Positions 21,452 through 45,968 of a stretch of DNA of 64,000 nucleotides are shown here, piece by piece. Source of the stretch: an uncultured Planctomycetota bacterium. Its GTDB lineage: Bacteria; Planctomycetota; PLA2; JAEUHO01. A program made the position numbers and the translations under genes. The notes under the pieces are model-generated. The model was not told where the DNA came from and made no database searches. It worked only from the letters and a program-made list of their open reading frames with translations. Location of the stretch: contig CAVVXN010000001.1 of the NCBI GenBank assembly GCA_963752285.1, positions 832,001 to 896,000 on the forward strand. The letters run 5' to 3'. The stretch's first letter is position 1. The number at the start of each line of letters is the position of its first letter.

Positions 21452-22582
21452 ATGGCCTCCTTCCCGCCCGCGCTCCACCGTCCACGGGCCCTTGCCGGGG
21501 CGCTCGTCCTGGCCGTCCTGGGGAGCGCCGCCGTCGCCCTCGGGCCCGGCCGGCCGCGGGGCGGGTCCGACCCGTCGCCGCCCGCGCGTCTCTCCCGGAC
21601 GGGGCTCTACGCCGACCCCGCGACCCTGGCCGTCGCGCGGGGCGTCCTTTCGTACACGCCGCAGTACCCGCTCTGGTCGGACGGCGCGACGAAGCGGCGG
21701 TGGATCCGGATCCCCGAGGGACGTGCCATCGACGCCTCGGACCCCGACCACTTCGACTTCCCCGTCGGGACGCGGATCTGGAAGGAGTTCTCCTTCGGGC
21801 GCCGGGTCGAGACGCGGTACATGGAACGCCGCGCGGACGGGGCGTGGACGTTCGCGACGTACCGCTGGAACGAAGACGGAACGGACGCCCTCCTCGTCCC
21901 GCCCGGGGGCGCGCCGGCCGCGGCCGAGTCGGCCCCCGGCGTCTGGCACGACATCCCCTCGCTCTTCGACTGCCGCGCGTGCCACGGAGACGGCCGCCTC
22001 GCGGTGCTCGGCTTCTCCGCGCTCCAGCTCTCGGCCGACCGCGATCCCCTGGCTCCGCACCGGGAGACCCCTGCGCCCGGCGCCGTGGACCTCGCGGGGC
22101 TCGCCCGGCGCGGGCTCGTCCGGAACCTCGACGCCGCGCTCCTCCACGTCCCGCCGCGCGTCGCGGCCTCGAGCGACGTCGCCCGCGCCGCGCTCGGGTA
22201 CCTCCACGCGAACTGCTCGTCGTGCCACCGTCCCGACTCGGACCTCGACGGCGTCGGCCTTTCCTTCCTGGTGCGCCTCGGCGGCGCGCAGCGCGGCCGC
22301 TCGGACGCGCTGGCGACGGCCGTCGGCCGGGCGAGCCGGTTCGGTCGCGCACCCGGCGTCGCGGCGCCGCTTCGCGTCGCGCCCGGCGACCCGGACGGGA
22401 GCGTCGTCGTGCGGCGCATGTCGTCGCAAAACGCGCTCGTTCGGATGCCGCCCTTCGGGACGCACGCCGTCGATCCCGACGCGCTCGCGCTCGTCGCGCG
22501 CTGGATCCGCGAGCTCGAGAACCAACGCGGTAGCGACCGCCGCGAGGGTGCGGCGGCGGCTCCCGCCCGATCGGAGCCCTGA
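21452..22582 (+). CDS. Diheme c-type cytochrome (SO2930-like)
   Basis: Signal peptide. YTPQYPLWSDGATKRRWI, FPVGTRIWKEF, CRACH, YLHANCSSCH and RMPP. Confidence 0.85.
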   Translation: MASFPPALHRPRALAGALVLAVLGSAAVALGPGRPRGGSDPSPPARLSRTGLYADPATLAVARGVLSYTPQYPLWSDGATKRRWIRIPEGRAIDASDPDHFDFPVGTRIWKEFSFGRRVETRYMERRADGAWTFATYRWNEDGTDALLVPPGGAPAAAESAPGVWHDIPSLFDCRACHGDGRLAVLGFSALQLSADRDPLAPHRETPAPGAVDLAGLARRGLVRNLDAALLHVPPRVAASSDVARAALGYLHANCSSCHRPDSDLDGVGLSFLVRLGGAQRGRSDALATAVGRASRFGRAPGVAAPLRVAPGDPDGSVVVRRMSSQNALVRMPPFGTHAVDPDALALVARWIRELENQRGSDRREGAAAAPARSEP

Positions 22583-22583
22583 C

Positions 22584-23135
22584 ATGAAGACGACCCTGGT
22601 CCTGACCGTGATCCTCGCCGCCGTGGCCGGCATCGGCTGGCTGCGTCCCGCCGAGGGCCCCGCCCGCGGCGCCGCGCGCGGACGTTACATCGTGAACGCC
22701 TTCGCGTGCGCCGACTGCCACACGCCCTTCCAGATGGGGCCGCACGGTCCCGAACCCGACCTCGCGCGAGCGCTCTCGGGTCACCCCGAATCGCTCGCCA
22801 TGCCCCCTGCGCCGCGGCTGCCCGCCGGTCCGTGGGCGGTGACGGTCGCCGCGACGAACACGGCGTGGTCCGGACCGTGGGGTACGAGCTTCACCGCGAA
22901 CCTGACCCCCGACGACGAGACCGGCCTCGGCCGGTGGACGGCGGACATGTTCGTCGCCGCGATCCACAGCGGCCGCCACATGGGGCACGGGCGCCCGATC
23001 CTCCCGCCCATGCCCTTTCCGGCCCTCTCGAACCTGAGCGACGACGACCTCCGCGCGGTCTTCGCCTACCTGCGCACCCTACCGGCCGTCCGGAACCACG
23101 TTCCCGACCCCGTGCCGCCCGCCGCAGCCGAGTGA
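22584..23135 (+). CDS. c-type cytochrome (c-553-like)
   Basis: Signal peptide, RGRYIV..CADCHTP, ANLTPDDETGLG, PPMP and AYLRTLP. Confidence 0.88.
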   Translation: MKTTLVLTVILAAVAGIGWLRPAEGPARGAARGRYIVNAFACADCHTPFQMGPHGPEPDLARALSGHPESLAMPPAPRLPAGPWAVTVAATNTAWSGPWGTSFTANLTPDDETGLGRWTADMFVAAIHSGRHMGHGRPILPPMPFPALSNLSDDDLRAVFAYLRTLPAVRNHVPDPVPPAAAE

Positions 23136-23160
23136 CCGCGGCGGACCGGGCGGGGCGCGT

Positions 23161-23219
23161 GGACCGCGCGTCGCAAAACGGGCGACGCGCGGTCCCTCGT
23201 CCTCGTCCGAATGGGACGA
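23161..23219. other. Two adjacent hairpins: perfect 14-bp stem GGACCGCGCGTCGC/GCGACGCGCGGTCC and 6-bp stem TCGTCC/GGACGA
   Basis: Stems at 23161-23174/23182-23195 and 23203-23208/23214-23219. No U-tract, so a terminator role is uncertain. Confidence 0.6.
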
Positions 23220-23519
23220 ACTTCGATGCGCTGGGCGTCACGCGGCCCGCGGCACGCCCGGATCCCGAGGACCGCGCGGCTCGTCGTCGGCGAGCCGTCG
23301 AAGCCCATCCTCGTGGCCCGGCGCGATCGGCCCGGCCCGCCCCGCCCTCCCCGCGGTCGGGTCCGTGGTCCGTGCCCGGCGGGCCGGGTCCGCGGGACGG
23401 CCCCGAGAGCCCTGTTTCTCGGGCGTTCCGAGCGACGCCCTCCCCCGGTCGGGCGTGTCGGTGGTTCTGTCTATGTTAGGTCCTCCAGACCACCGCAGCC
23501 CGGAAAGGGGGAACCCCAG

Positions 23520-26168
23520 ATGCCCGCCCTCGAAGACGTCCGCCAGGCCCTCTCGTCGATCGACCTCGTCCCGGGGCTCTCCGTCCAGAACGTCGAGATG
23601 CGCCTCGACGTCGGCCTCCGTCTCGGAGACGTGGGACAGCGCGTCCTCGCCTTCTACCTCGTCGAGATGGACGCCCGCCGCCTCTACCAGGCGCTCGGGT
23701 ACCCCACGACCGCCTCCTACGCCGAGGACCGCCTCGGTTTCGACCGGCGCCGGACCGCCGAGCTGATCCGGGTCGGGCGCGCGCTGCTCGCGCTCGAGGA
23801 GCTCGACCGGGCCTTCGCGCGGGACCGGCTCCCGTGGTCGAAGATCCTCCTGCTCTCGCGGGTCGCGACCCCGGAGCACGAGAAGGCGTGGCTCGGGCGC
23901 GCGCTCGAGAGGACGACGCGCGAGCTCGAGGCGGAGGTCCGAAGCGTCAGGGTGGGCGCCCCTCCGCCCCAGCCCGGCGAGCGAAGGGGTCTTCCCGAGG
24001 TTCGCTTCGAGGTCGAGATGAAGGTCTCGGCGCTCGTCCAGGCGAAGCTCGAGCAGGCTCAGGCCCGCGTCGAGGCGGAGCGCGAGACGCCGATCGGAGG
24101 GCCCGAGCTCCTGGACGTCCTCCTCGACACGTTCCTCTCGCTCGAGGAGGACGGGACCGCGCCGGGGAAGAAGCGCGTGGACGCGTCGCTCTACAAGATC
24201 GTGCTCCACGAGGAGGAGCCACCGGAAGCCGGGGACCAGGCCGGGGACGAGGCTTGCGACGAGGCCGAGGACGCGCACGAGACGGAAGAGAGCGACGGAG
24301 GCGCGTCGCCCCCGCTCGGGGACGCCGCGAGCGACGAGGCGAATCACGCGGCGCACCGCGCCGCGAGCCGCGTTGCGGGCCACGCCGCGAGCCCTGCCGC
24401 GAGCCACGCCGCGAGCCACGCCGCGGGCCACGCCACGAACGTCGCGGGGAGTGACGCGGGGCCAACCGCACCGACCACGCGGTCCGCCGACGGCCCGCGG
24501 CTCTGGCTGGAGGGGGGCCTCTCGCTCGACGCGTCCCTCAGCGCGGCGATCCGCTGCGACGCGGCCGTGACCCGGATCGACGAGGCGCGGCACGGTCGCC
24601 ACGACGATCCAGGTCACGATCACGACCACAAGGACGTGAAGACCCCGCCGTGGCTTCGGAGGCGCGCGCTCGCCCGCGACGACCACCGCTGCCGGGGCTG
24701 CGGCTCCCGCTACCGGCTGATGGTCCACCACGTCCGGTGGCGCTCCCACGGAGGGCGGACGCACCTTCGAAACCTCGTGACGCTCTGCGTGCGCTGTCAC
24801 GCGCTGGTCCACGCCGGCCTCCTCGTCGTCACCGGGAGGGACGCCCGCCGACTCTCGTTCCTCGGGCGGGACGGGCGGGCGCTGCGACGTCCGCTCCCGG
24901 CCGAGGACCGCCTCGCGATCTTGGAGATCCCGCCCGCACGGGACGGTGGGGGGGCGGGAGCGCCCGCGCGACCCGGGCCCGCGGGCGCGGCGCACGCGGG
25001 GATCGGGCGCGCGGAGGCCGGGTGCGCGGAGGCCGGGTGCGCGGAGAGCGGGCGCGCGGAGACCGGCTGCGTCGGGATCGGGAACGTGCCCCGGGAGATC
25101 GACGGGGCGTGGTGGCGGCGCCACAAGGATCTCGTCCGGTTCCGGAGCGAGACGACGCTCTCGCTCCGTCCGGGCGTCGCGCGGCCGGTGGACGAAAGGG
25201 CTGCGAGCCGAGGCGCCGCGAACCGGGAGGGTGCGCGGAGCGAGCCGATCCCGGTCGAGCAGGCCTTCCCCGGCCTCGTGGGCCAGGACGCGCTCCTGGC
25301 GCGGCTCGCCGTGACCTCCAAGGGGTCCCGGGCCCGGGGGGAGACGTTTCCCCATGTGCTCCTCGTCGGCCCCGCGGGCACGGGGAAGACCACGATCGCG
25401 CGGGGGATCTCGCGCCTCGAGGGAACCCGGCTCGTCGAGGCATCGGGGAGCTTCCTCTCCGACGTCGGCGCGATGGTCCGGCTCCTGGCCGGACTCGAAG
25501 AGGGCGACGTGTTCTTCCTGGACGAGGTCCACGCGATCCCCGCGGCGGCGCTCGAGACGCTCTACCAGGCGATGGTCGAGCAGGCCCTTCCGCTCGTGGT
25601 GGAGATGGGCGTCGAGTCGCGGCCCGTCCGGCTCGTGCTCCCGCGCTTCACGCTCGTCGCCGCGACGACCGAGGAGCCGCGCGTCCCGCTTCCGCTCCGG
25701 AGCCGGTTCGGGCTCGTGGAGACGCTCGGCTACTACGGGGCGGCGGACCTCGCGCGACTCGCGGTCGCGCGGGCGGGGGCGAAGGGGTACGCGCTCGGGC
25801 CGGAGGCGGCGAAGGGGCTCGCGAAGGTGGCGAGAGGAACGCCCCGTGAGGCGATCCGGCTCGTGGAGCGAACGCTCGACGCGGCGGCGGCCGAGGGCAC
25901 GAGGCGGATCGACGCCCGGGTCGCGACGAGAACCCTCTCGCTCCTCGGCTACGACGCCGACGGGCTCGACCCGACCGAGCAGCGCTACCTCGCGCTGCTC
26001 CGTGCGAGCGCGGGGCCCGTGCCGCTCGGCCGGCTCGCGCGGATGCTCGGGACGAGCGCGGGCGCGGTGCTCCAGAGGGTCGAGCCCTACCTCTGCCTTC
26101 GCGGCCTCGTCCGCGTGACGCCGACGGGGCGCGTCGCGACGTACCGACCTCGGATCGCGGAGGCCTGA
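23520..26168 (+). CDS. Fusion protein: DUF222-like N-terminus, HNH endonuclease and full RuvB-like AAA+ ATPase
   Basis: Purine-rich RBS then ATG 23520. HNH RDDHRCRGC..VHHV..GG..NLVTLCVRCHALVH at ~24650-24815. RuvB-like VGQ, GPAGTGKT, FFLDEVH, FTLVAATT, PLRSRFG, RGTPR and EPYL..TPTGR at ~25266-26145. Confidence 0.92.
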   Translation: MPALEDVRQALSSIDLVPGLSVQNVEMRLDVGLRLGDVGQRVLAFYLVEMDARRLYQALGYPTTASYAEDRLGFDRRRTAELIRVGRALLALEELDRAFARDRLPWSKILLLSRVATPEHEKAWLGRALERTTRELEAEVRSVRVGAPPPQPGERRGLPEVRFEVEMKVSALVQAKLEQAQARVEAERETPIGGPELLDVLLDTFLSLEEDGTAPGKKRVDASLYKIVLHEEEPPEAGDQAGDEACDEAEDAHETEESDGGASPPLGDAASDEANHAAHRAASRVAGHAASPAASHAASHAAGHATNVAGSDAGPTAPTTRSADGPRLWLEGGLSLDASLSAAIRCDAAVTRIDEARHGRHDDPGHDHDHKDVKTPPWLRRRALARDDHRCRGCGSRYRLMVHHVRWRSHGGRTHLRNLVTLCVRCHALVHAGLLVVTGRDARRLSFLGRDGRALRRPLPAEDRLAILEIPPARDGGGAGAPARPGPAGAAHAGIGRAEAGCAEAGCAESGRAETGCVGIGNVPREIDGAWWRRHKDLVRFRSETTLSLRPGVARPVDERAASRGAANREGARSEPIPVEQAFPGLVGQDALLARLAVTSKGSRARGETFPHVLLVGPAGTGKTTIARGISRLEGTRLVEASGSFLSDVGAMVRLLAGLEEGDVFFLDEVHAIPAAALETLYQAMVEQALPLVVEMGVESRPVRLVLPRFTLVAATTEEPRVPLPLRSRFGLVETLGYYGAADLARLAVARAGAKGYALGPEAAKGLAKVARGTPREAIRLVERTLDAAAAEGTRRIDARVATRTLSLLGYDADGLDPTEQRYLALLRASAGPVPLGRLARMLGTSAGAVLQRVEPYLCLRGLVRVTPTGRVATYRPRIAEA
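24321..24440 (+). repeat. In-frame 12-bp tandem repeat (10 degenerate units, consensus CACGCCGCGAGC = HAAS)
   Basis: Units read directly in the linker before the HNH domain. Confidence 0.85.
25005..25079 (+). repeat. In-frame 15-bp tandem repeat (5 units, GG(C/T)GCGCGGAG core = G[RC]AEx)
   Basis: Units read directly in the linker between the HNH and RuvB-like domains. Confidence 0.8.
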
Positions 26169-26437
26169 CCGGGGAGACGCACGCGACGAGCGGCCGCCCC
26201 TCGAACGGAGGAAGGGGAGCCGGACGCGCGCGAGCGCGACGGGGGAGAGGTGCGTCCCGAGGCCGCGGCGCGCGGCTGCGGCGCGAGGCCGCGCTGCGGG
26301 CGGGGCGCGAGGGCGCGGCGCGCGGGCGCGGCGCGGGCGCGGTCGGGGTGCGGGTGCGGTCGGGGTGCCGAATCGGGGGGAGGCGGGCGAACGAGGCGCC
26401 CCATTAGCCCGTCCGATCTCGCCGAGGGCGATCGGAC

Positions 26438-26482
26438 GAGGTCGGCGAGGTCGGCGAGGTCGGCGAGGTCGGCGAGGTCGGC
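26438..26482 (+). repeat. Perfect 9-bp tandem repeat (GAGGTCGGC)x5
   Basis: Direct reading. Preceded by hairpin CGTCCGATC/GATCGGACG at 26410-26438. Confidence 0.95.
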
Positions 26483-26499
26483 AGGCGTCCGGACGGGGC

Positions 26500-26852
26500 G
26501 CTTTGTAAAGATCGGCGCGCGCCGGACGTCCGGCAAAACCGACCGGGGGTCGGGATTGCGCTCGACGCTTGGCCGGAGCCGCATCCCGTGGGCGCCCGCG
26601 CGTAGAGGGCGGCGGCGCGAGAGCTTCCAGGACGACGGGCGCGCGCCGGACGCCTGGCCATGCCGAGCGTCGGGTCCCGACGGACCGTCGGGTCCCGACG
26701 AACCGCCGGGTGTCGCGCGGGTTGGGCGCCCGGGGTGGTCGCGGGCGGCGTTGCCGGGGTCGGATCGGCGGCGCCGAGGGGCTCGTGTGCAAGGGCTTCT
26801 GTAAAGACCGGGGCGCGCCGGACGTCCGGCAATGCCGACCCGGGTCGGCAAT
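26500..26852 (+). repeat. Three dispersed copies of a ~45-58-bp palindromic unit
   Basis: Copies at 26500-26557, 26623-26666 (degenerate) and 26795-26852. Core is TGTAAAGA..GG.GCGCGCCGGACGTCCGGCAA..CCGACC..GGTCGG. Confidence 0.85.
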
Positions 26853-26926
26853 CGACATCCGGGACCTCGGGGCTCGTGTGGGGCGGGCCCGGGCCGCGCT
26901 TGGTCCCCCTCCGGACGCTGGACAAT

Positions 26927-26940
26927 ACTGACCAGTCAGT
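26927..26940. promoter_or_regulatory. Probable TetR operator ACTGAC-CA-GTCAGT
   Basis: Perfect inverted repeat in an AT-richer patch ~55 bp upstream of the tetR start. Confidence 0.7.
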
Positions 26941-26995
26941 CGGTTTTGGGTGCTCGGCGTCGTCCGGACCGGGCCGCCCGGAGGACGCACATCCC

Positions 26996-27562
26996 TTGCA
27001 GACACGATCCGAGGACAAGCGCCAACGCATTCGTCGCGCCGCCGCCGAGCTCTTCGCCACGCGGCCGTATCACGAGGTCCTTCTCTCCGACGTGGCGGCC
27101 GCTGCCGGCGTGGGGAAGGGCACCATCTACGTCTACTTCGAGAACAAGGACAGCCTCTATCTCTCGGTCTACCTGGAGGAGTTCGTGGCCCTGGTGGACG
27201 CCCTCGATGCGTCCGCCGACGCCGCTCCGGACGCCCCCGAGGCCCTCCGCCAGGTGGTCCAGCAGCTCGTCGCCCACATCTTCGGGAGCCCCCACGTCTC
27301 CGAGCTGCTGCGAAACGTCGGGGCCCCCGGCGCGCTGACCCCGTTCCGCGAGCAGCACGGGCGCCTGACGGCGCTGATCGCCAAGGTGATCCGGCGGGGC
27401 GTCGAGGCGGGCCGGTTCCAGGACCCGCGCCCCGACCTCACCGCGGTCTACCTCCCCGGGATCGTCCGGTCGGCGCTCCTCTACGGTCCGCAGGGACTCA
27501 CGGCCGTCGAGGTGAGCGAGCACCTGGTCGGGCTCCTCCTCTCCGCGCTCGCGGCGAGGTAG
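26996..27562 (+). CDS. TetR/AcrR family transcriptional regulator
   Basis: GGAGGA RBS with TTG start. RIRRAAAELF..DVAAAAGVGKGTIYVYFENKDSL HTH. Confidence 0.92.
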   Translation: MQTRSEDKRQRIRRAAAELFATRPYHEVLLSDVAAAAGVGKGTIYVYFENKDSLYLSVYLEEFVALVDALDASADAAPDAPEALRQVVQQLVAHIFGSPHVSELLRNVGAPGALTPFREQHGRLTALIAKVIRRGVEAGRFQDPRPDLTAVYLPGIVRSALLYGPQGLTAVEVSEHLVGLLLSALAAR

Positions 27563-27564
27563 CC

Positions 27565-28887
27565 GTGCCCGAACCCGACGAGCGGAAGCGACCGAAGAAG
27601 AGGATCGTCCTCCTCGTGGTCCTCGGGGTCGCGGCCGCCGTCGGGGCCGCCTTCGGCGTGCCGCGGGTCCTCTACGCGCTCCACCACGAGTCCACGGACG
27701 ACGCGTTCGTCGAGGGCACGATCGCCTCCGTGAGCTTTCGGATCTCGGGGCACGTCCAGGCCGTTCACGTGGACGACAACGAGCGCGTGCCCGCGGGGGC
27801 GCCGATCGCGGAGCTCGACCCGGCGTCGTTCGAGGTGAGGCTCCACGCCGCCGCGGCCGCGCTCGAGGCCGCGCGGGCGAAGCTCCAGGGGCTCGAAGCG
27901 CGCGTACGCCTCGCCGAGCAGACGACCGCGGCCGACGTCGAGGGCGCCGCGGCGGCCGTGGACGTCGCCGAGGCCGAGCTCGCCGCCGCGCGCACGCGCG
28001 TGGACGTCGCCGAGCAGAACGAGAACGGCGCGGGGATCGACGTGAAGGTCGCCGCCGCCGAGCGGGACGAGGCCCTCGCCGCCGAGGCGTCCGCGAGGGC
28101 CTCCGCGGAGCTCGACGCGACCGATCTCGAGCGCTCGAAGGTCCTCTACGCGCAGAAGACCATCACGAAGGCCGAGCTGGACCGCGCCGAGGCCGCATCG
28201 CGCGTCTCCGCCGCGAAGCTCGAGGCCGCCGGCAAGATGATCGCCGCCGCGCGCGCGCGACTGGAGCAGGCGAGCACGAGGGTCGCGGTCGCGAAGAGCA
28301 TGGTCACGCAGGAGAAGGCGGGCGTGGACCGCGCACAGGCAGCCCTCGAGGCGGCGCGCGCGAAGCAGAAGAGCGCAAAGAGCGCGACGCTCCAGGTGGA
28401 GGTGGCGAAGGCCGAGCGCGACGAGCAGCGCGCCGAGGTCGAGGGGGCCGAGGCCGACCTGGCGCAGGCGAGGCTCGACCTCGGGTACACGAAGCTCGTC
28501 GCCCCCGTGGCGGGACGGGTCACGAAGAAGTCGCTCACCGTGGGGCAGTGGGTGGAGCCCGGGCAAGCGCTCATGGCGCTCGTTCCCGACGACGTGTGGG
28601 TGGTCGCCAACTACAAGGAGACGCAGGTCGGCGACATCCACCCCGGCCAGACCGTGCGGGTCCAGGTGGACGCGTTCCCCGAACACGACTTCCGGGGGCG
28701 CGTGGACAGCATCCAGGCGGGGACGGGCTCGCGCTTCAGCCTTCTCCCCGCCGAGAACGCGACCGGCAACTACGTGAAGGTGGTCCAGCGCATCCCGGTG
28801 AAGATCGTCTTCGACCCGGCGCCCGACCTCGACGCGTTCCCTCTCTCGCCCGGGATGTCGGTCCAGGCCGACGCAGACGTCGACTAG
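27565..28887 (+). CDS. emrA: HlyD/EmrA family membrane fusion protein
   Basis: ESTDDAFV, WVVANYKETQ and GSRFSLLPAENATGNYVKVVQRIPVKI. Confidence 0.9.
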   Translation: MPEPDERKRPKKRIVLLVVLGVAAAVGAAFGVPRVLYALHHESTDDAFVEGTIASVSFRISGHVQAVHVDDNERVPAGAPIAELDPASFEVRLHAAAAALEAARAKLQGLEARVRLAEQTTAADVEGAAAAVDVAEAELAAARTRVDVAEQNENGAGIDVKVAAAERDEALAAEASARASAELDATDLERSKVLYAQKTITKAELDRAEAASRVSAAKLEAAGKMIAAARARLEQASTRVAVAKSMVTQEKAGVDRAQAALEAARAKQKSAKSATLQVEVAKAERDEQRAEVEGAEADLAQARLDLGYTKLVAPVAGRVTKKSLTVGQWVEPGQALMALVPDDVWVVANYKETQVGDIHPGQTVRVQVDAFPEHDFRGRVDSIQAGTGSRFSLLPAENATGNYVKVVQRIPVKIVFDPAPDLDAFPLSPGMSVQADADVD

Positions 28888-28894
28888 CGCGCGC

Positions 28895-30430
28895 GTGAGC
28901 GAGGCGTCCTCCACCAACAAGTGGATCGTCGCCGGCACCGTCATGTTCGGGACGTTCGTGGCGGTGATGGACATCAGCGTCGTGAACGTGGCCCTGCCGC
29001 ACATGATGGGCACGTTCGGCGAGACGCTCTCCGCGATCACGTGGGTCGCGACCTCCTACAGCATCGCCGAGATCATCCTCGCGACGATGGCCGGGTGGTG
29101 GAGCACGCTCCTGGGTCGGAAGCGCCTCTACCTCGTGTCCTTCGGGGTCTTCACGCTGGGCTCGATCCTGGCGGGAACCGCGCGGACGTTCCCGCTGATG
29201 ATCGTGTTCCGCGTGATCCAGGGCATCGGCGGCGGCGCGCTGATCCCGGTCTCGCAGGCCATCCTCCGCGAGTCCTTCCCCAAGGAAGAGCAGGGGATGG
29301 CCATGGCCATCTACAGCATGGGCGTGGTCCTCGCGCCGGCCATCGGGCCGGTGCTCGGCGGATGGCTCACGGACGCGTACGGCTGGCCGTGGATCTTCTA
29401 CATCAACGTGCCCGTGTGCGTGATCGGCATGCTCCTGGTCGGAGCGTTCGTGCACGACCCCGAGTACCTGCGTCGCGGCGTGAAGAAGATCGACTGGACC
29501 GGCATCGGGCTGCTGGCCCTGGGCCTGACCGGGATGCAGATCGTCCTGGAGCGCGGCGAGCAGGAGAACTGGTTCGAGTCGAACGCGATCGTGCTGGTGT
29601 CCATCGCCACCGTCGTGGCCCTCGCGGTGCTCGTCTGGGTCGAGCTCAAGAGCCGGGAGCCGGTCGTGGACTTCCGAATCCTCAAGAACGTGCCCCTCGC
29701 CGTCGGCTCGGGCATGGGCCTCATCTTCGGCATTGCCCTCTTCGGCTCGACGTTCATCCTCCCGCAGTTCACGCAGGACCTCCTCGGCTACCCCGCGTTC
29801 GACGCCGGCCTGACGCTGCTCCCCCGCGCGATCACGCTCTTCCTGGTGATGCCGCTCGTGGGGAAGCTCTACGGGAAGATCGACTCTCGCGTCCTGGTCG
29901 GCCTCGGGCTCCTCGTCATCTTCTGGTCGTTTCACGACCTGGCCGGGCTCTCGCTCGACGCCGGCTTCTGGAACCTGGTGCCCATGCTCCTCCTGATGGG
30001 CGCGGGCATGCCGTTCATGTTCGTGACGCTCACGACCGTCTCGCTCAGCACGATCCCCCGCGAGGACATGACCCAGGCGTCCAGCATCTACACGCTGTCC
30101 CGCCGGGTGGGGGGGAACATCGGCTACGCGTTCGTCGCGACGATCGTCGCGCACCGCATGCAGCTCCACCGCGTGCGGCTGGTCGAGCACCTCACCCCGT
30201 ACGAGCCGCACGTCCGCGCGTGGATCGGCGGGCTGACGGAGCGCATGGCGGAAATCGGCCGTGGTCCGCGCGCCGCGGCCGACGCCGCCCTGAAGACCGT
30301 GGACGGCCTGGTCTCACGCCAGTCGGCGATGCTGGCCTACAACGACGCCTCACTGATCCTCGGCGTCCTCCTCCTGGTGACGATCCCGCTGATCTTCTTC
30401 CTCCCCGGCCGCCACGCCACCGGGAGCTGA
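28895..30430 (+). CDS. emrB: DHA2 (EmrB/QacA) MFS efflux permease
   Basis: MDISVVNVALPHM, WVATSY, RVIQGIGGG, APAIGPVLGG, WIFYINVP and LERGEQENWFES. Confidence 0.92.
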   Translation: MSEASSTNKWIVAGTVMFGTFVAVMDISVVNVALPHMMGTFGETLSAITWVATSYSIAEIILATMAGWWSTLLGRKRLYLVSFGVFTLGSILAGTARTFPLMIVFRVIQGIGGGALIPVSQAILRESFPKEEQGMAMAIYSMGVVLAPAIGPVLGGWLTDAYGWPWIFYINVPVCVIGMLLVGAFVHDPEYLRRGVKKIDWTGIGLLALGLTGMQIVLERGEQENWFESNAIVLVSIATVVALAVLVWVELKSREPVVDFRILKNVPLAVGSGMGLIFGIALFGSTFILPQFTQDLLGYPAFDAGLTLLPRAITLFLVMPLVGKLYGKIDSRVLVGLGLLVIFWSFHDLAGLSLDAGFWNLVPMLLLMGAGMPFMFVTLTTVSLSTIPREDMTQASSIYTLSRRVGGNIGYAFVATIVAHRMQLHRVRLVEHLTPYEPHVRAWIGGLTERMAEIGRGPRAAADAALKTVDGLVSRQSAMLAYNDASLILGVLLLVTIPLIFFLPGRHATGS

Positions 30431-33521: not shown

Positions 33522-33578
33522 CCGGCCGCTGTCCTCGACACGCTATCCTGTCCCCTCGAACTCGATCCCGGAGGTGCC

Positions 33579-36320
33579 ATGAGCGAGTCGGCGACGGGCC
33601 AGACGCGCCGGGTCCGGCAGGCGGGGTTCCTGACGGTCGTCGGCCTCGGGATCGCGACCCTCCTGACGCTCGCGAAGGCGACGTGGGGGGACGGAGACCC
33701 CGGGCGCGCGGGCCTCGCGGATCCGGTGGTCCTCGTCGGCGTCGGCGAGGGCGACCCCTACTACGCGGTGGCGGTTCGACTCGCGAAGTCGCGATCGGCG
33801 CCGATCGTCCGCTTCGATCCGGCGGCTCCCGACGCCGTGTTGCCGCGTCTCCGGGAGCTCGCGCCGACGGACGCGATCGTCGTCGTCCGGCCCGAGCAGA
33901 TCGACGTGAGCTTTGTGCGACGCTTCCTTGTCATGGCGACCCGCGTGGACGACGACCCGTTCGTGGACTTCGCCTACGGGTTCGTCACCGGCTCGACGCC
34001 CCTCGAAGCCCTCGCGTTCGCCGATCGGATCGACCGCGCGCGTACCGCGCCGAAGCCCGATACGGTCGCCCAGTCCTACGTCGTCGGGGGCCCGGGCACG
34101 TCTCGATCCCGGACCGGGCGCTACACGCTGGGTTCGCGGTCGTGGGGGCTCCACGAGCTCCAGTTCGTCGCCCCCGCCGACGAGAAGGACGGGCGCGACC
34201 AGGCGTTCCTCGACCAGCACCTGAAGGAGATCCAGGGCTCGGCGGCGATCCTGATGGGCGGCCACGGGATGCCCTGGGAGATCGGAAACGGACCGCAGGC
34301 CGAGGACGTCGCGCGCCTCGACCTCTATCCCGCGGTCGCGTTCAACTACGCGTGCTACACGGGCGTCACCCGGCGGTGGCCGGAGCTCCGGTACGACGAC
34401 GGCGCCTACGTGTCGGAGACGCACGAGGTCGAACCCGGGAAGAGCTTCGCGCTCGCCATGATCCACGCGGGGATCGTGGGCTACGTCGCGTACGTGAACC
34501 CGCGACCCGCGGGTCCCGAGATGACGACCGACTTCGAGCAGGTCCTCGCGGGCGCCTCGATGGGCGCCGCGCGGCGGCGAGACCTCGCGAAGGTGGCGCT
34601 CGGCTACCTCGGCTTCGGCGAGCCGGGCGTCGTCCCGCCCGACTGGGTCGCGGGCGAGCGGACGCCGCTCGCGAAGGTCGATGCCGTACGAAACCTCATG
34701 CTCGACGGCGCCACGGGCGGCATCCTCTATGGCGACCCGGCGTATGCGCCCTTTCCCTCGCATCCGGAAGACCTGCCGCTCCAGACCACCGTGGCGCCGA
34801 AGGGCGACGAGCTCGAGATCACCCTCGAGATGGCCGCGCGCTCCGTGTACCTCTGGTGCGCCGATCCCTTCCGCCGCGCGGGCGATCGCGACATGGCGAT
34901 GAAGCTCTACGACCGTGTCGAGCTCCCCGCCGGCCTGAAGACGGTTCGCTCCGTCCGCGTCGTCGAGGCCACGTGGGGCGGCAAGCCGATCGAGACGCTC
35001 GACCCCGTCTGGGCGCTGGAGCAGGACCAGGGCCACCGCTACCTCCACGTGAAACCCGGGTTCGCCCGCGGCGGCGAGGGGCGCCTCCGGATCGTGCTCG
35101 TCGCGAGCGCGCGCGAGGTGGCCGCCGTGCGCGCGTCGCCGCCGCACCCGGTGCCCGCCGCGAAGCCCGTGGACCTCGCCGACCCGGCCGAGTGCCGCCG
35201 GCTCGCGATGGAGGTGGGCGACGAGGTGATCCGCCGCCGGGGCGAGCTCTCGGACGCGTGGGTCTACGACGGGCGCGCGGGCGCCGCGCTCTTCCTGTTC
35301 GACCTGTTCGGCGCGACGGGGGAGGAGCGCTACCAGGTCGCGGCCGACGACCTCGTCCGCGCGGCGGAGCAGGCCGACGGGGACGCGGGCCTCTACACCG
35401 GGCTCGCCGGCGTCGGCCAGGTGCTGCTCGAGGCCGCGCGCGTGACGAAGGACGCGTCCTACCGCGACCGCGCGGCGGCCGTCGCGAAGCGACTCCCCCC
35501 GGCGCGAGGCGCCGACGTGATCTCGGGCGCCGCCGGGACGGGGTTCTTCCTCCTCTCGCTCTACGCCGCGACCCGCGACCGCGCCTGGCTCGACGAGGCG
35601 ATCGGGCTCGGCGAGCGGCTCGACGCCGCGGCGATCCGCGAGGAGGGCGAGGCCCGATGGAAGGTCTCGCCGGAGCTCGACCGGGTCTACGTCGGCTTCT
35701 CGCACGGCGCGGCGGGCGTCGGCACGTTCCTCGTGGCGCTCGCGAAGGCCACGGGCGACGACCGCTGGCTCGCGCTCGCTCGAGAGGCGGCGGCGTTCGT
35801 CGTCGCGCGTGCGCACGACGACGGCCACGACGGATGGGCGTGGACGAAGACGGACCCGCCGGCAAAGGACGCGCCCTTCCCCGTGCAGTGGTGCCACGGC
35901 AGCCCGGGCATCGCGCTCTTCTTCGGCGCGCTCGCCGACGCGACCGGAGGCGACGGGGCCGGGGGCGGCAGGACCGACGCGGACGGGTACCGCGCGGCGC
36001 TCTCTCGAAGCGTGGCGAACGATCTTTGGGAGGGGCGCACCGCGCGCGCGGGGGGATGCCTCTGCCACGGGAAGGCGGGGAACGCGCTCGTGCTCCTCGA
36101 CGTCGACCGCCGCCGGCCCGATCCCGCGCTCCGGGCCGCGGCGCGGGCCTTCGCGTCCGACCTCGTCGCCGAGGGCCACGTGCGGCTCTCGCTCGGGAGC
36201 TACGCGTACGGGCCCGGCTACATGACGGGCCTCTCGGGCATCGGTCGCTTCTTCCTCTGCCTCGCGGACCCCGCGACCGTGCCGCCGGTGATCCTGCCGC
36301 CCGACGACGGCGGGGCCTGA
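33579..36320 (+). CDS. Exported fusion: C25/gingipain-like (clan CD) cysteine peptidase domain plus LanC-like domain
   Basis: GGAGG RBS and N-terminal hydrophobic helix. GGHG, NYACYTG and LYGDP (C25-like). FSHGAAG, WCHGSPG, CLCHGKAG and GYMTGLSG (LanC-like). Confidence 0.8.
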   Translation: MSESATGQTRRVRQAGFLTVVGLGIATLLTLAKATWGDGDPGRAGLADPVVLVGVGEGDPYYAVAVRLAKSRSAPIVRFDPAAPDAVLPRLRELAPTDAIVVVRPEQIDVSFVRRFLVMATRVDDDPFVDFAYGFVTGSTPLEALAFADRIDRARTAPKPDTVAQSYVVGGPGTSRSRTGRYTLGSRSWGLHELQFVAPADEKDGRDQAFLDQHLKEIQGSAAILMGGHGMPWEIGNGPQAEDVARLDLYPAVAFNYACYTGVTRRWPELRYDDGAYVSETHEVEPGKSFALAMIHAGIVGYVAYVNPRPAGPEMTTDFEQVLAGASMGAARRRDLAKVALGYLGFGEPGVVPPDWVAGERTPLAKVDAVRNLMLDGATGGILYGDPAYAPFPSHPEDLPLQTTVAPKGDELEITLEMAARSVYLWCADPFRRAGDRDMAMKLYDRVELPAGLKTVRSVRVVEATWGGKPIETLDPVWALEQDQGHRYLHVKPGFARGGEGRLRIVLVASAREVAAVRASPPHPVPAAKPVDLADPAECRRLAMEVGDEVIRRRGELSDAWVYDGRAGAALFLFDLFGATGEERYQVAADDLVRAAEQADGDAGLYTGLAGVGQVLLEAARVTKDASYRDRAAAVAKRLPPARGADVISGAAGTGFFLLSLYAATRDRAWLDEAIGLGERLDAAAIREEGEARWKVSPELDRVYVGFSHGAAGVGTFLVALAKATGDDRWLALAREAAAFVVARAHDDGHDGWAWTKTDPPAKDAPFPVQWCHGSPGIALFFGALADATGGDGAGGGRTDADGYRAALSRSVANDLWEGRTARAGGCLCHGKAGNALVLLDVDRRRPDPALRAAARAFASDLVAEGHVRLSLGSYAYGPGYMTGLSGIGRFFLCLADPATVPPVILPPDDGGA

Positions 36321-42066: not shown

Positions 42067-43212
42067 ATGCAACCCCTCGGCGCGCCCCGGATCCGCGTCC
42101 CGGCCCTGGCGCTCGCGCTCGCGCTCGGGGCCGCCCTCTCGACGGCCTGCGGCGGCGGATCGTCCTCCTCGTCGGGCGGCGGCGACACGGGCCCGGTGGT
42201 GGCGGGATCGTGGCAGGCGATCTTCTTGGGGAGGGACGTCTCGGGGGGGACCACGACCTCCGCGACGGCGGCCTGGTCGAGCGACGGGACGGGGGCCCTG
42301 ACGTCGGGCACGGGCTGGATCGCGAACGGCGGGACGGTCACGGGCCCGAACGACCCCGGGGACGCTTCGGTGGAGGTCGCGCCCGACCGGAGCGCGACCT
42401 TCACGCTCTCCGGCGGCGCGATGCTCCACGGGCGGGTCGGCGTCGGACGCGACATCGCCATCGCGGCGAACGTGACCGACGGCCAGGACCCCGCGTGGAT
42501 GGCGCTCGTTCGGAGGAACCCCGCGCCGACCCTCGCCGACCTCCAGGGCGAGTGGTGGCAGGTCGAGTGGTGGTACGACCCGAGCCTCTCCGTGCCGGCG
42601 GGATCGAGCCTGACCGACGTGTGGATCACGCCGGAGGGCTACGTCGTCCCGGACGTCGTCGCCCTGAACCGGGGCGGGGTCGTCGGCGTCCCCCCGGGCG
42701 TCGTCCTCTTCGACGAAGCGATCTCCATCGCGGGCGGCTGGCTCGTGGACGGGTCGAGCTTCGCGCCCGCGGCGTATCGCGGGGGGCTCGCCCTCTCGGG
42801 GGACGTGGTCCTCCTCGGCGCCGCCGAGGACTCGACGGGGCAGGCCGCCGTGAAGGTCCTGCTCCGCCGCAGCTCGGCCGTCGATCCGACCCCCGCCTAC
42901 GGGAACGTCGCGCTCGCCGGCTTCACCTCGATCCTCGCGAACCTCGGGGCGCTCGGGGGCACGGGCACCTACGACGCCGCGAGTCCGAAGTGGGACCTCG
43001 CCGTGAACCTCGAGGGGACGGCGAGCGGCTCCGCGGTGATCCCGCTGGACCTCTACTACGCCTTCTCCCGGCTGGAGCTCGACCCCACGTCGGGCTCGCC
43101 CGGGTACCTCGGCGCGTTCGCGCGCGGCGGCGAGCTCGTGGCGCTCGGGGGGACGTTCACGGGCTCGCCCTCCGACCGACAGGACCCGGGCATCGTCCTG
43201 ACCCTTCGCTAA
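42067..43212 (+). CDS. Hypothetical lipoprotein
   Basis: GGAG RBS. Lipobox-like LSTACGGGSSSS followed by a Gly/Thr-rich beta-strand sequence. Confidence 0.75.
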   Translation: MQPLGAPRIRVPALALALALGAALSTACGGGSSSSSGGGDTGPVVAGSWQAIFLGRDVSGGTTTSATAAWSSDGTGALTSGTGWIANGGTVTGPNDPGDASVEVAPDRSATFTLSGGAMLHGRVGVGRDIAIAANVTDGQDPAWMALVRRNPAPTLADLQGEWWQVEWWYDPSLSVPAGSSLTDVWITPEGYVVPDVVALNRGGVVGVPPGVVLFDEAISIAGGWLVDGSSFAPAAYRGGLALSGDVVLLGAAEDSTGQAAVKVLLRRSSAVDPTPAYGNVALAGFTSILANLGALGGTGTYDAASPKWDLAVNLEGTASGSAVIPLDLYYAFSRLELDPTSGSPGYLGAFARGGELVALGGTFTGSPSDRQDPGIVLTLR

Positions 43213-45968
43213 CGCGCTCTCGGGCGCAGCACGATCCGGACCGGACCGCTCGCCGGGCGAACGCCCGAGACCTCGCCGTAGCGCAGCACGCTCCCGGCCT
43301 CCGCGCCGAGGACGGCGCGCACCCGGATCTCGCCCTGGACGTCCGGGGACATCCGAAGGGTGAACCGCCCCTCCGCGTCCGTTTGGGCGTGGAGGTCCTC
43401 GCCCGCGGCCCACGTCGTCACCTCCGCGCCCGCGACGGCGTGGCCTTCCTCGTCCAGGACGCGACCCAGGAGCAGCCGCGGCGGCGCGAGGCGCACCACG
43501 ACCGGGTCCGGGCCCGCGGTCAGGTCGTCGCGATTCGCGCTCGCGAGGTCGATCGAGCGGTCCGCGGGCGGGCGGACGGTGAGCGCGACCGGACGCGCGG
43601 TGAGGCCGTCGATCCGCGCCACTCCGCCCGGATCGGCCGCGACGGGGTCCGGATGGCCGTCGGGCACCGGACGTACCGAGACGGTCGCGCCGGCGAGCGG
43701 TGCGCCGCTCGGGTCCTCGACGCGGACGAGGAGCGTCAGGTCGGCCGCGACGGGCGCGGCCTCGAGTCGAACGGTGCCGCCGTCGAGCAAGACGCCGCAA
43801 AGCGACGCCTCGAGCGGGAGACGGACGGCGCGGTACCGGCCTGCCGGGTCCGACCGGTAGACGTCGCCGAAGAACGCGAGGTCCACGGGGCCACCGGGCT
43901 CGGCCGCGAGGAGGAACGCGCCGGCGCCGTCGGTCTGTGCGTAGCCGACCGCCTCGCCCGCGCGTCTCGCCTCGATCGACGCGCGCACGACGCCCGCCCG
44001 GTCCGGGCCGACCAGAACGCCGTGGACGAGGTCGGCCGCCCGCAGGTGGACCCGGTGCTTGCCCACGTCGGCGGAGACCTCTTCCGGATCGGGGCAGAGG
44101 TAGGCGCCCTCGGGCACGTCGAGCACCTGCACCTTCACCGTCTCCGCCCCGAGCGGAAGGTGGAAGGTCACGACGCCGTCCGCCGCGGTCCACTCCATCT
44201 GCTCATCGAAGTCTTGGGGCGCGATGTCCACCAGCACGTGGGCGACCCCCTTGCCGTCGGGCCCGACGACCGAGACCCGGAAGGGCCGGTCGGGCTCGAA
44301 CGCGAGCTCGATGTCGCGCGCGTCCCCGCCGGCCGCGAGGACGACCGTCCGCGTGGTCTTCGACTCGCCTTCGCGTTCGGCGGTCAGGATGTACGTGCCC
44401 GGGGCGAGGTCGGTGAACGCGAACCGTCCCAGGTCGTCCGTCGTGCGCTCTTCCTCCTGTCCGTAGTAGCCGTCGAACGTAAAGGCCGGGACCTCCGGCG
44501 GGAGGAGGCGGGCCACGTCGTCGTTCCCGCCGGACAGCGTGACCCGGACGTCCGCGAGCGGCCTGCCTTCGTCGTCGAGGACGCGCCCCGAGATCCTGTG
44601 CGCGGCGGGGACCACGATCGTCCCCACGTCCACGACGGGCACGCCGGTCGGCGGTGCTGCGACGTCCAGCAGCGTGCGCCCGCGGCCCTCGGGCATCACG
44701 ACGAGGACGTAGGGGAGGTCGCGGGCGAGGTCGGCGAGCCCGAAGCGGCCCGTCTCGTCGCTGCGGCCCTCGGCGTGCGCAGAGAGCTGTCGGCCGTTCA
44801 CCGTCTTCGAACCGATCGTCGCCACGACCGCGCCCGCGACGGGGTGGCCGTCGTCGGTCCGAACCCGCCCCGTGAGGGCGAAGCCCCGTTCGAGGGCGAA
44901 GTCGATCGCCTTCCGCTCTCCGACGACCTCTTCCGATCGCGCGTACCCCGGGGCCGCCACGTCGATCTCGTGGTAGTCGTTCGCGACCCATCCGCCGAGC
45001 GCGTACCGACCGTCCGCGTCGGTCTTCGTCGGCTTGAAGAGGGTCCAGCCCATCCCCACGACGGCGTTCGCGACCGGGCGACCGGTCTCGGCGTCCGTGA
45101 CGCGGCCCGTGACGACCCAGCCGGGCGCGATCACGACGCGGTGCTCGAGCGCGCCCGACGTCGGGAGCCGAATCGAGTCGTACTCGCTCGAGAACCCGCC
45201 GCGCGGTCCGTCCTGCGCCTCGAGCACGACGGCGATGCCGGCCGGAAGGTCGTCCAGTCGGCAGGTGCCGCGCGCGTCCGTCGTGGCGTGCGCCTCGAAG
45301 CCCACGGGCTCGCTCCAGGCAGCGTGGACCTCGACCTCTACGCCCGGGAGCGCGCGTTCGTCGGGGCCGACCGCGTGGACCACGAGCGCGACGCCGCGAC
45401 GGAGGACCACGCGTATGCGCGCGCCGGGCTGGAGTCCGCCGAAGCCCACGGGTGCGTAGCCCTCGGCCCGCACGCGAAGGCTCACCACGGTCCCCGGCCG
45501 GAGCGGCAACCGAAACGTGCCGTCCGTCGCGCTCCGGGTCGAGGGGCCCTCGACGGCCTCGTCGTAGCGCTCGTTCGCGAGGATCGAGCCGCGTCGCCAC
45601 GGGTACGTGACGACCCCGAGGTCGGCGCCGGCGACGGGCTTCCCCAGTACGTCCACGACGACGCCGTGGAGGTCCCGCTCGCGATCGACGGCCGCGAGGT
45701 CCACCGGCGGGGGCGCGATCGACGGTGAGAAGGGTGCGACGGAGCCTGGCTCCGTACGTCCGGTGAGGCGCGGTCGGGACGCGTCGGTTCCGTCGGAAGC
45801 GGCCGCGTCCGCGGCGGGATCCGACCGCGATTCGGACATACGGAGCCAGGCTCCCGGCGTCCACTTCTCCGTCGCGACGAACGCGAGGATCGCGATCCCC
45901 GCGACCAGGAGAACGGCCACGAACCCGACCCGCCGGCGCACGCGTCGAGCGTGGCCCGCGCGTGTCAC
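43209..45968 (-). CDS. Membrane-anchored protein with multiple carboxypeptidase-regulatory-like domains
   Basis: N-terminal TM. Many repeats of G.V.D..G.PV.GA.V ... TD..GRF.L. Confidence 0.88.
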   Translation of the reverse strand: MTRAGHARRVRRRVGFVAVLLVAGIAILAFVATEKWTPGAWLRMSESRSDPAADAAASDGTDASRPRLTGRTEPGSVAPFSPSIAPPPVDLAAVDRERDLHGVVVDVLGKPVAGADLGVVTYPWRRGSILANERYDEAVEGPSTRSATDGTFRLPLRPGTVVSLRVRAEGYAPVGFGGLQPGARIRVVLRRGVALVVHAVGPDERALPGVEVEVHAAWSEPVGFEAHATTDARGTCRLDDLPAGIAVVLEAQDGPRGGFSSEYDSIRLPTSGALEHRVVIAPGWVVTGRVTDAETGRPVANAVVGMGWTLFKPTKTDADGRYALGGWVANDYHEIDVAAPGYARSEEVVGERKAIDFALERGFALTGRVRTDDGHPVAGAVVATIGSKTVNGRQLSAHAEGRSDETGRFGLADLARDLPYVLVVMPEGRGRTLLDVAAPPTGVPVVDVGTIVVPAAHRISGRVLDDEGRPLADVRVTLSGGNDDVARLLPPEVPAFTFDGYYGQEEERTTDDLGRFAFTDLAPGTYILTAEREGESKTTRTVVLAAGGDARDIELAFEPDRPFRVSVVGPDGKGVAHVLVDIAPQDFDEQMEWTAADGVVTFHLPLGAETVKVQVLDVPEGAYLCPDPEEVSADVGKHRVHLRAADLVHGVLVGPDRAGVVRASIEARRAGEAVGYAQTDGAGAFLLAAEPGGPVDLAFFGDVYRSDPAGRYRAVRLPLEASLCGVLLDGGTVRLEAAPVAADLTLLVRVEDPSGAPLAGATVSVRPVPDGHPDPVAADPGGVARIDGLTARPVALTVRPPADRSIDLASANRDDLTAGPDPVVVRLAPPRLLLGRVLDEEGHAVAGAEVTTWAAGEDLHAQTDAEGRFTLRMSPDVQGEIRVRAVLGAEAGSVLRYGEVSGVRPASGPVRIVLRPRAR

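Follow-up and report, generated by a model that had tools for sequence, protein, structure and literature searches.

RuvB is a single-copy motor that works only together with RuvA and RuvC, and an AAA+ motor part is also present in systems of the McrBC type. In eukaryotes, proteins of the ZRANB3 type, which act at stalled forks as part of the DNA-damage response, combine a double-stranded DNA translocase able to shift branch points and an HNH nuclease in one polypeptide. The DUF222-HNH superfamily has, to our knowledge, had no known function since the REP13E12 repeats of Mycobacterium tuberculosis were described, and we know of no ATPase in its mycobacterial members. Here we analyse a gene located at 23520-26168 (+) in a 64,000-nucleotide (nt) stretch of DNA, hereafter the window, from an uncultured Planctomycetota bacterium (GenBank assembly GCA_963752285.1, contig CAVVXN010000001.1, positions 832,001 to 896,000). 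The gene encodes a DUF222-like half, an HNH nuclease and a RuvB-like motor in a single protein, hereafter the fusion. The genome, G000, has 4.64 Mb in 5 contigs (C1-C5) and is 89% complete; the window is part of C1. We propose that the fusion is a stand-alone, DNA-damage-induced motor-nuclease with helix-turn-helix (HTH), HNH and RuvB-type modules, a proposal for which we see the chances as evenly balanced. It is probably an undescribed DNA-damage-response enzyme.

Compared with canonical RuvB (RuvAB-RuvC; structures 7pbl, 8efv and 1ixs), the motor of the fusion has the same three-domain AAA+ fold, but some 580 N-terminal residues, with a putative DNA-binding domain and a nuclease, are added to it. 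Moreover, the gene is multi-copy, does not lie beside ruvA or ruvC, and its product scores below the equivalog cut-off (242-263 against 282 bits). To a protein of the REP13E12/DUF222-HNH group (PF02720 + PF01844), the N-terminal half of the fusion is homologous along its length. Both are encoded by multi-copy stand-alone genes with a PafBC/RecA_NDp-type promoter and a candidate LexA-type operator (for 13E12, PMC3381160, in part), but the relatives of the fusion are planctomycete rather than actinobacterial, and a middle element and a RuvB-like motor follow the HNH domain. ZRANB3 is the closest functional analogy, although its motor is SNF2 and not AAA+/RuvB, and the two whole proteins do not share descent; the ZRANB3-type HNH domain (5mkw_B) aligns with that of the fusion at Z 4.6 (VIA-align). 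McrBC and McrA resemble the fusion in joining an AAA+ motor to a nuclease and in an HNH fold near McrA/TagI, but the fusion motor is RuvB-like and not McrB-like, and neither a modification-reading domain in the protein nor a defence context was found. The PafBC regulon of Actinomycetota has an identical consensus, recA as a member and a PafC-like protein, the planctomycete case being deduced from sequence.

In a full-text literature search, with subscription journals and supplements outside its scope, no paper with an HNH-RuvB fusion or a nuclease-fused RuvB paralogue was found, and in the parts consulted of a jumbo-phage survey (PMC7824862) the only mention of RuvB is unrelated. RuvB-like motors that make up a whole clade, occur in several copies per genome and each come joined to a DNA-binding domain and a nuclease are thus undescribed in the searched literature. 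Database labels of the family members are 'AAA family ATPase', 'HNH endonuclease' or, wrongly, 'RuvB'. If coupling of motor and nuclease is true, the fusion would be a compact ATP-driven nuclease, directed to a structure or to a site.

Architecture and ancestry of the fusion protein

The open reading frame (ORF) and the parts that it encodes are as follows.

23520..26168, +: fusion ORF (DUF222-like/HNH/RuvB-like), 882 codons plus stop
23562..24137, +: N-terminal helical domain, residues 15-206, with a ParB/KorB-like candidate HTH fold in the core, 19-144 (AlphaFold, VIA-align, hhalign)
24228..24512, +: low-complexity linker, residues 237-331, acidic and Ala/Ser/His-rich, predicted local distance difference test score (pLDDT) <50
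24636..24884, +: HNH (beta-beta-alpha-metal) nuclease domain with a four-cysteine zinc site, residues 373-455 (Pfam, VIA-align)
25071..25187, +: middle element, residues 518-556, consensus VDxxWWRRHAHLxR..., one helix and two short strands
25269..26144, +: RuvB-like AAA+ module, with ATPase 584-735, lid 739-811 and winged helix 815-875 (Pfam, Foldseek)

The ORF, announced as uninterrupted by the first-pass annotation, translates into 882 residues and a stop, with no internal stop, and is a real, intact gene. Its third-codon-position GC of 0.91 is what is expected of a real gene in a genome of 73% GC. An alternative in-frame ATG at 23211 would give 985 residues. The start at 23520 is preferred, because the paralogue on C5 starts with the equivalent MQAVEDVRRALSSIDLV, because nucleotide similarity between the C1 and C5 copies begins only at 23450, and because a purine-rich ribosome-binding stretch sits before 23520.

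The protein consists of four ordered parts: a helical N-domain, a zinc HNH domain, a middle element of about 40 residues and a RuvB-like AAA+ module. Pfam recognizes HNH (PF01844) at residues 391-432 (37.9 bits, cut-off 21.4), RuvB_N at 584-735 (122.6 bits), AAA_lid_4 at 739-811 and RuvB_C at 815-875, and each of the four exceeds its cut-off. The complete zinc HNH and the entire RuvB module that had been claimed from the sequence are both present, and all the motifs quoted for them occur in the translation. Confident folds were predicted by AlphaFold for the N-domain (15-150, pLDDT ~95, with two extra helices reaching residue 206), the HNH domain (375-450), the middle element (518-556, pLDDT 93-95) and the RuvB-like module (575-875, pLDDT ~96), with disordered linkers between them (237-331, 353-372 and 458-514). 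The first of these linkers is an insertion private to the window copy when compared with 34 relatives, and is coded by 12-nt tandem repeats (24228-24273 and 24322-24438). The family-specific middle element is conserved in the alignment of 35 full-length family members, and is covered by no Pfam family.

In this same alignment, C391, C394, H403, H404, C423, C426, H427 and H431 of the HNH domain, comprising its four zinc cysteines and its catalytic or metal histidines, are invariant, and N418 is conserved in at least 90% of members. On the motor side, Walker A (G617-K623), Walker B (E669), sensor 1 (T716), the arginine finger (R729) and sensor 2 (R776) are invariant or at least 90% conserved. 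As the catalytic residues are conserved in the 35 members, nuclease and ATPase both look active throughout the family. The closest folds to the HNH domain are TagI (6ghs_A, Z 8.6) and McrA (6ghc_B, Z 8.1) by VIA-align; by sequence profile, the domain is closest to IscB (9k2z_A, E 5.5e-12), a Cas5-HNH fusion and McrA.

The N-domain has its best fold matches, by VIA-align, among the DNA-binding domains of ParB/Spo0J, KorB and Noc (1vz0_A, Z 9.6, root-mean-square deviation 2.8 Å over 104 aligned residues; 6s6h_B, Z 8.9; 1r71_A, Z 7.4). Foldseek gave E values of 0.04-0.1 for matches of the ParB/KorB type and none at E<=0.001 for the N-terminal half against the PDB, and the sequence profile of this half matches PDB chains in its HNH part only. 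These models are suggestive of a ParB/KorB-like HTH with a DNA-binding role. Regarding descent, the N-terminal region had been likened to DUF222-type HNH proteins. The Pfam DUF222 model (PF02720) does not match the window protein at E<=0.1, and the list of the 25 families that the 35 members match most often does not include it. However, profile comparison by hhalign of the family with a genuine Pfam DUF222+HNH protein (P0037, whose own DUF222 match is 9.9e-17) gave a probability of 99.3% and an E value of 1.3e-20 over 338 columns. Since the whole N-terminal half is aligned, the likeness is taken as homology, detectable by profile comparison only. By descent, we read the fusion as a DUF222-HNH protein that acquired a RuvB paralogue.

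The motor has RuvB_N, AAA lid and RuvB_C with intact ATPase motifs, and Foldseek matched it to 7pbl, 8efv, 6blb and 1ixs (E 1e-25 to 1e-29, template modelling score on the target 0.8-0.88, 33-41% identity). It nevertheless falls below the curated cut-offs of the NCBIfam RuvB equivalog (NF000868 / TIGR00635), with 242 bits against 282 and 218.9 against 299. In a search of the genome with the 282-bit cut-off, the three fusions reached 263, 245 and 209 bits and the genome's own ruvB 397.9. This canonical ruvB is located at C5:725748-726683; ruvA is also on C5 and ruvC on C4, with one of each in the genome, and neither ruvA nor ruvC is in the window, as had been noted. Among 61 sampled genomes of the phylum, 57 have a RuvB above the equivalog cut-off.

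We then built an unrooted maximum likelihood tree of 110 RuvB modules (IQ-TREE, LG+G4, quick search), 54 from fusions and 56 canonical. The canonical set comprised 30 sequences from the phylum, 25 from other phyla and the genome's own; outgroup canonical RuvBs were taken from a Walker B-motif pattern search of genome contigs. One branch (Shimodaira-Hasegawa-like approximate likelihood ratio test, SH-aLRT, 99) separates all 54 fusion motors from the 56 canonical RuvBs, and the genome's own RuvB nests within those of the phylum. Because it is unrooted, the tree gives two separate groups and not the order of events; the branches leading to fusions are long. By these comparisons, the fusion is not the genome's ruvB and its motor is a divergent RuvB paralogue, which bears out the suggestion, made in the first-pass annotation, of a repurposed paralogue carrying its own nuclease.

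We also docked the C-terminal part of the genome's RuvA on the fusion motor. The score was weak, at 0.38 (best of 3 controls, 0.00), with runs agreeing in at least 83% of contacts and a partner pLDDT of at least 73; in the calibration, 116 of 157 solved complexes passed the mark, as did 2 of 215 mismatched pairs, and the passes at or below 0.60 were 18 of the 157 and both mismatches. This score may reflect likeness to the solved RuvA-RuvB complexes.

Promoter motifs upstream of the fusion

Two motifs lie in front of the gene.

23456..23477, +: promoter-like motif TGTCGGTGGTTCTGTCTATGTT, a perfect match to the PafBC/RecA-NDp consensus, ending 43 nt before the ATG at 23520
23464..23478, +: degenerate direct repeat GTTC-N7-GTTA, with 4 mismatches to a consensus of 12 bases, lying across the spacer and the -10 element of the promoter

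The first of these came to light when the regions upstream of 21 fusion copies were aligned. The PafBC promoter consensus, tGTCgg(N10)tA(N3)T, spans 22 nt, its 3' part being the -10 element (PMC8635444, in part; for PafBC and RecA-NDp see also PMC6789036, in part). We searched both strands for the strict pattern TGTC[GA]G-N10-TA-N3-T, the reversed pattern serving as control. The 4.64-Mb genome contains 12 sites against 1 for the control, with about 7 estimated by chance from base composition. All but one of these (11/12) lie 9-72 nt upstream of a co-oriented ORF with a coding signature. Besides the three fusions, the genes concerned are the following.

C5:803180: recA
C5:2119647: ssb
C3:337563: thyX
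C1:697566: topoisomerase VI subunit B
C1:87672: rubrerythrin
C1:690772: LysM protein
C5:1810941 and C5:2144550: two short HNH genes

The two short ORFs (406 and 376 residues) are remote relatives of the N-terminal half of the fusion, with probabilities of 96.3% and 94.9% in profile comparison. A PafC-like regulator, with HTH_PafC (2.7e-21), WYL and WCX, is encoded at about C5:740173-741273, and a second ORF has WYL and WCX. Among 30 strict-motif loci examined in five related genomes, 22 precede orthologues of the same genes: the fusion (5), recA (5 sites at 4 genes), short HNH genes (6), ssb (3), rubrerythrin (2) and thyX (1). In one of these genomes (G294), the recA site is at an estimated 0.7 kb from the likely start, and not within 0.3 kb. 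Starting from the fusions themselves, we searched the 90 nt upstream of 21 fusion loci, with 2000 control windows. The strict motif is found in 7 of the 21 against 0.2% of controls, and a relaxed one in 9 of the 21 against 0.9%.

We infer from this a conserved PafBC-like DNA-damage regulon in a planctomycete, with the fusion as a member, and it would suggest that damage regulation of the PafBC type extends beyond Actinomycetota. Since its PafBC-type promoter is common to recA, ssb and short DUF222-like HNH genes, the fusion is most likely damage-induced. Mycobacteria offer a close parallel. The 13E12 (DUF222-HNH) genes of M. tuberculosis are induced by DNA damage, six being bound by LexA and others carrying RecA_NDp (PMC3381160, in part), and five putative HNH endonucleases are described as mitomycin C-induced in a RecA-dependent manner (PMC8151990, in part). 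The main text of the M. smegmatis PafBC paper (PMC5656591) mentions neither HNH, 13E12 nor ruvB. The shared promoter is a first testable functional handle on the DUF222-HNH superfamily. The first-pass annotation could not see it, and this promoter frames both of the functions weighed below.

In many relatives, a direct repeat, GTTCGT-N5-GTTCGT, lies beside or overlaps the promoter. Of 21 copies, it is perfect in 3 and has at most 2 mismatches in 7, compared with 2.2% of 1000 control windows; the version in the window is a weak site. In 21 genomes of the family, the perfect repeat occurs at 52 sites, 15 of them in one genome, against 7 for the reversed control. We examined 30 of these loci: the gene that follows is a fusion at 6 of them and, in three genera, an orthologous Y-family polymerase gene at 3. 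GTTC-N7-GTTC is the LexA box of Alphaproteobacteria (PMC3323433, in part), and the direct repeat is a candidate SOS-type operator of the family's own. In the genome of the window, GTTC-N7-GTTC occurs at 96 sites, of which 5 have at most 1 mismatch to GTTCGT-N5-GTTCGT and none is at an obvious repair gene. The recA upstream regions do not contain the exact repeat.

The Y-family (IMS) polymerase genes with the perfect repeat upstream are at loci L176 (G249:C432), L253 (G402:C365) and L264 (G407:C18). In another genome (G401, loci L272-L281 and L283), a repeat of 200-290 nt, 77-85% identical, is present on at least 11 contigs, most of them short. It contains a PafBC-like motif and, directly after this, ACGAAC-N5-ACGAAC. 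Neither an HNH nor a fusion ORF was found after this composite promoter in the repeat copies, and the repeat may represent a small RNA, a gene for a small peptide or a promoter cassette that is mobile.

Distribution, copy number and competing explanations

A word-indexed search returned 36 relatives, 30 of which have both HNH and RuvB_N. In an exhaustive search of representatives, most of the best 150 matches were proteins of 650-900 residues aligned in two or three stretches. The strict CxxC...HH...CxxCH motif is found upstream of the motor in 100 of the 126 stored proteins, i.e. those with the motor aligned over more than 270 residues. In all, about 100 representative clusters have the architecture. 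Named members come from Planctomycetota or Planctomycetia metagenome-assembled genomes (MAGs), except for one MAG labelled Polyangiaceae. We also searched 401 sampled genomes of the phylum with residues 1-460: 110 match at E<=1e-5, mostly by the HNH part only, and 23 at E<=1e-20, often with several copies. Within the window's own family, the fusion is present in 9 of 16 genomes besides G000, and some close relatives do not have it. In some genomes (G088), short forms of about 460 residues without a motor are encoded.

Further copies of the fusion in its own genome had been suggested as something to look for, together with a separate canonical ruvAB(C), and both were found. The three fusion paralogues are on C1, C5 and C2, the closest pair sharing 62% protein identity, and similarity between the C1 and C5 copies spans exactly promoter to stop (23450-26176). 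Separately, outside the window, an isolated 126-nt fragment at C1:303091-303219 (-) is 89% identical to window 25840-25965, which codes for the lid to winged-helix part. It is nearer to the window copy than the full C5 paralogue is (72%), lies antisense to a long ORF on the + strand, and may be the scar of a lost or converted copy.

We then compared the surroundings of the fusions, taking 20 kb around 20 copies from 14 genomes, calling genes by a third-position-GC rule and cross-comparing all proteins. No neighbour family is present in more than 5 of 21 loci (14 genomes), and the fusion alone is common to the loci; its neighbours are often on the opposite strand. Two neighbour families recur, Ser/Thr kinases and a family including a sigma-54-type activator, both of kinds frequent among the sampled neighbours. 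One fusion copy (in G025) is adjoined by a gene for a Vsr-like very-short-patch repair endonuclease (L123:7394-7972; PADLOC Vsr, 2.2e-22), an arrangement seen once.

How such a protein might work can be outlined from its canonical counterparts. The RuvB-like part would encircle double-stranded DNA as a ring and pump it, so that a branch point or fork is displaced. The N-domain would give DNA targeting, as RuvA does for the canonical motor, and the tethered HNH would nick or cut the DNA presented by the motor, the role of RuvC in the canonical system. DNA damage would turn on transcription at a promoter of the PafBC type, served by a WYL activator. The architecture, the conserved catalytic residues, the distinct clade, the several copies, the absence of a partner gene and a shared, conserved promoter motif are what the analysis shows; from these we infer induction, ring formation, the substrate and the coupling of movement to cutting. 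A broader version, which we advance tentatively, sees a junction or fork machine free of RuvA and RuvC (ParB-like HTH, HNH and RuvB ring) under a PafBC switch, and in the DUF222-HNH superfamily an ancient damage nuclease module whose dual PafBC/LexA control was kept in Actinomycetota and Planctomycetota.

Several points weigh against a damage-induced motor-nuclease. The N-domain is helical and its best Z is 9.6, whereas chance or common helical arrangements occur below about 13. The TP.GR motif at the C-terminus is kept in fusions, as are Walker A/B, sensor 1, the arginine finger and sensor 2, but GP.ARS at the tip of the pre-sensor hairpin and TSGP, which canonical RuvB keeps, are not conserved; as surface features of canonical RuvB are not retained in this way, ring formation and work on junctions cannot be assumed. 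The regulon is deduced from the position and conservation of a motif. This strict motif does not occur upstream of 14 of the 21 fusion genes, the five related genomes have 36 sites of it but also 13 of the reversed control, without a clean separation, and several of the genes that it precedes (LysM protein, rubrerythrin) are not repair genes. As for the direct repeat, only 9 of the 30 examined loci precede a fusion or a Y-family polymerase gene. Neighbours scanned at 11 other repeat sites are mostly unrelated, with one glyoxalase/bleomycin-resistance-like protein, and two further sites had no ORF to scan. The lexA upstream regions of the family do not have the exact repeat, and contain GTTCG-rich elements with other spacing. 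Finally, patchy presence (9 of 16), expansions within genomes and long branches suit housekeeping repair no better than a gene that is selfish or driven by conflict.

This last point leads to the main rival, which we regard as rather unlikely, namely that the fusion is a selfish element resembling REP13E12. The nuclease would be of the homing type, the HTH would pick the site, the motor would branch-migrate during copying repair, and induction by damage would set the element's own timing. Divergent copies are indeed numerous (3 in G000, at least 4 in G249, 4 each in G025 and G302, 5 in G332), and in the tree paralogues group by genome: C1 with C5 in G000 (support 98), three copies in G025 (96), two in G210 (100) and two in G302 (100). 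The patchiness within the family, the solitary gene with its own promoter and a C1-C5 similarity limited exactly to this unit, and the 126-nt fragment elsewhere on C1 would be natural for such an element, and the literature presents the 13E12 relatives of mycobacteria as insertion elements that contain phage attachment sites (PMC3381160, in part). On the other hand, near-identical copies are lacking, even the closest pair within the genome being at 62% protein identity, and neither terminal repeats nor target duplications, a transposase or an integrase came to light. An empty site was not demonstrated: in the same-genus genome G391, blastn aligned only window 26924-30424 (76% nt identity), and since only the downstream operon is syntenic and the upstream side is rearranged, no conclusion on insertion is drawn. 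No match to residues 1-455 was found in the phage and plasmid collections, and in IMG/VR 19 of 169 candidate stretches match, all within residues 367-453, i.e. at the level of the HNH motif. Moreover, the catalytic residues of both enzymes are retained across deep divergence. The data do not separate this explanation from junction or fork processing, and the damage-type promoter frames both.

An anti-phage or anti-plasmid nuclease comparable to McrBC, whose motor would translocate on foreign DNA for the HNH to cut, had been among the options of the first-pass annotation and now appears improbable. Modification-dependent restriction enzymes (TagI and McrA) are the best folds of the HNH domain, and the fusion shares with typical defence genes its fast evolution, multiple copies and patchy presence. 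However, PADLOC 2.0 gave no real match to the protein (best DpdF, E 9.7e-6, on the HNH part only), and 98 of 106 neighbour proteins from 19 loci had no match at 1e-10. The eight that did are generic (3 Ser/Thr kinases, a helicase, Vsr, a sigma-54 activator, a deaminase and an ABC ATPase) and form no system; in addition, the promoter is common to recA and ssb. We give hardly any credit to an artefact, be it a mis-assembly or mis-join or the organism's usual ruvB with an unusual extension. In its favour, 'Holliday junction branch migration DNA helicase RuvB' is the name that some members receive in public pipelines, a repetitive linker joins HNH to RuvB, and the sole public contig over 24885-25119 differs at 15 bases and has 4 gaps. 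Yet the same architecture recurs in independent assemblies (the 30 of 36 and 100 of 126 above), the genome has three paralogues in addition to a separate canonical ruvB, and the tree has two groups. Neither a stop nor a mis-join between the HNH and RuvB parts was found, and the fusion is neither without homologues of its architecture nor a sole ruvB branching with canonical orthologues. Overall, the interpretation first given of this gene is partly supported.

Sequences around the gene

In the window, the fusion gene lies between a cytochrome-c-like gene, ending at 23135, and a TetR-HlyD-MFS operon. Long non-coding flanks had been reported on both sides. Downstream, this holds, as about 26169-26950 is non-coding and packed with repeats. 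Upstream, the non-coding flank is only 384 nt (23136-23519), because coding sequence, conserved at 68% nt identity in two relatives and with weak matches to cytochrome c, occupies 21598-23143. Rfam and tRNA scans around the gene gave no matches.

26249..26848, no strand: repeat-rich non-coding stretch, with tandem and palindromic repeats downstream of the fusion

This stretch contains a GC-rich 13-nt tandem repeat (26251-26368), TCGGCGAGG repeated 5.6 times (26432-26482), and, at 26504-26548 and again at 26800-26844, a 45-nt repeat that includes the palindrome GCCGGACGTCCGGC. This last repeat is also found downstream of the C5 paralogue, and arrays of it exist at C1:643062-643589 and C5:1981752-1982865. 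These downstream repeats look like repetitive extragenic palindromic (REP) sequences. In the upstream intergenic region, 59-60 nt of window 23238-23297 match C5:448741, C2:503236 and C3:419157 at 83-87% identity.

Three wetland-metagenome runs contain 6-11% of the sampled words, and no RNA run is among those with the locus. The contigs assembled from them are short, none spanning the fusion gene, and an odd join of 24565 to 25648 (side 21) corresponds to one contig of 171 nt with a depth of 2; these runs are evidence neither way on expression or assembly.

Elsewhere in the window, ARAGORN called an odd tRNA-like gene with a four-base anticodon (cccg) at 43285-43380 (-), inside the long minus-strand ORF 43209-46301, which is probably a false call. 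At 33522-36320 (+), a protein of 932 residues with a C-terminal LanC-like domain (2.7e-44) is encoded, and may be a class III/IV lanthipeptide synthetase-like enzyme.

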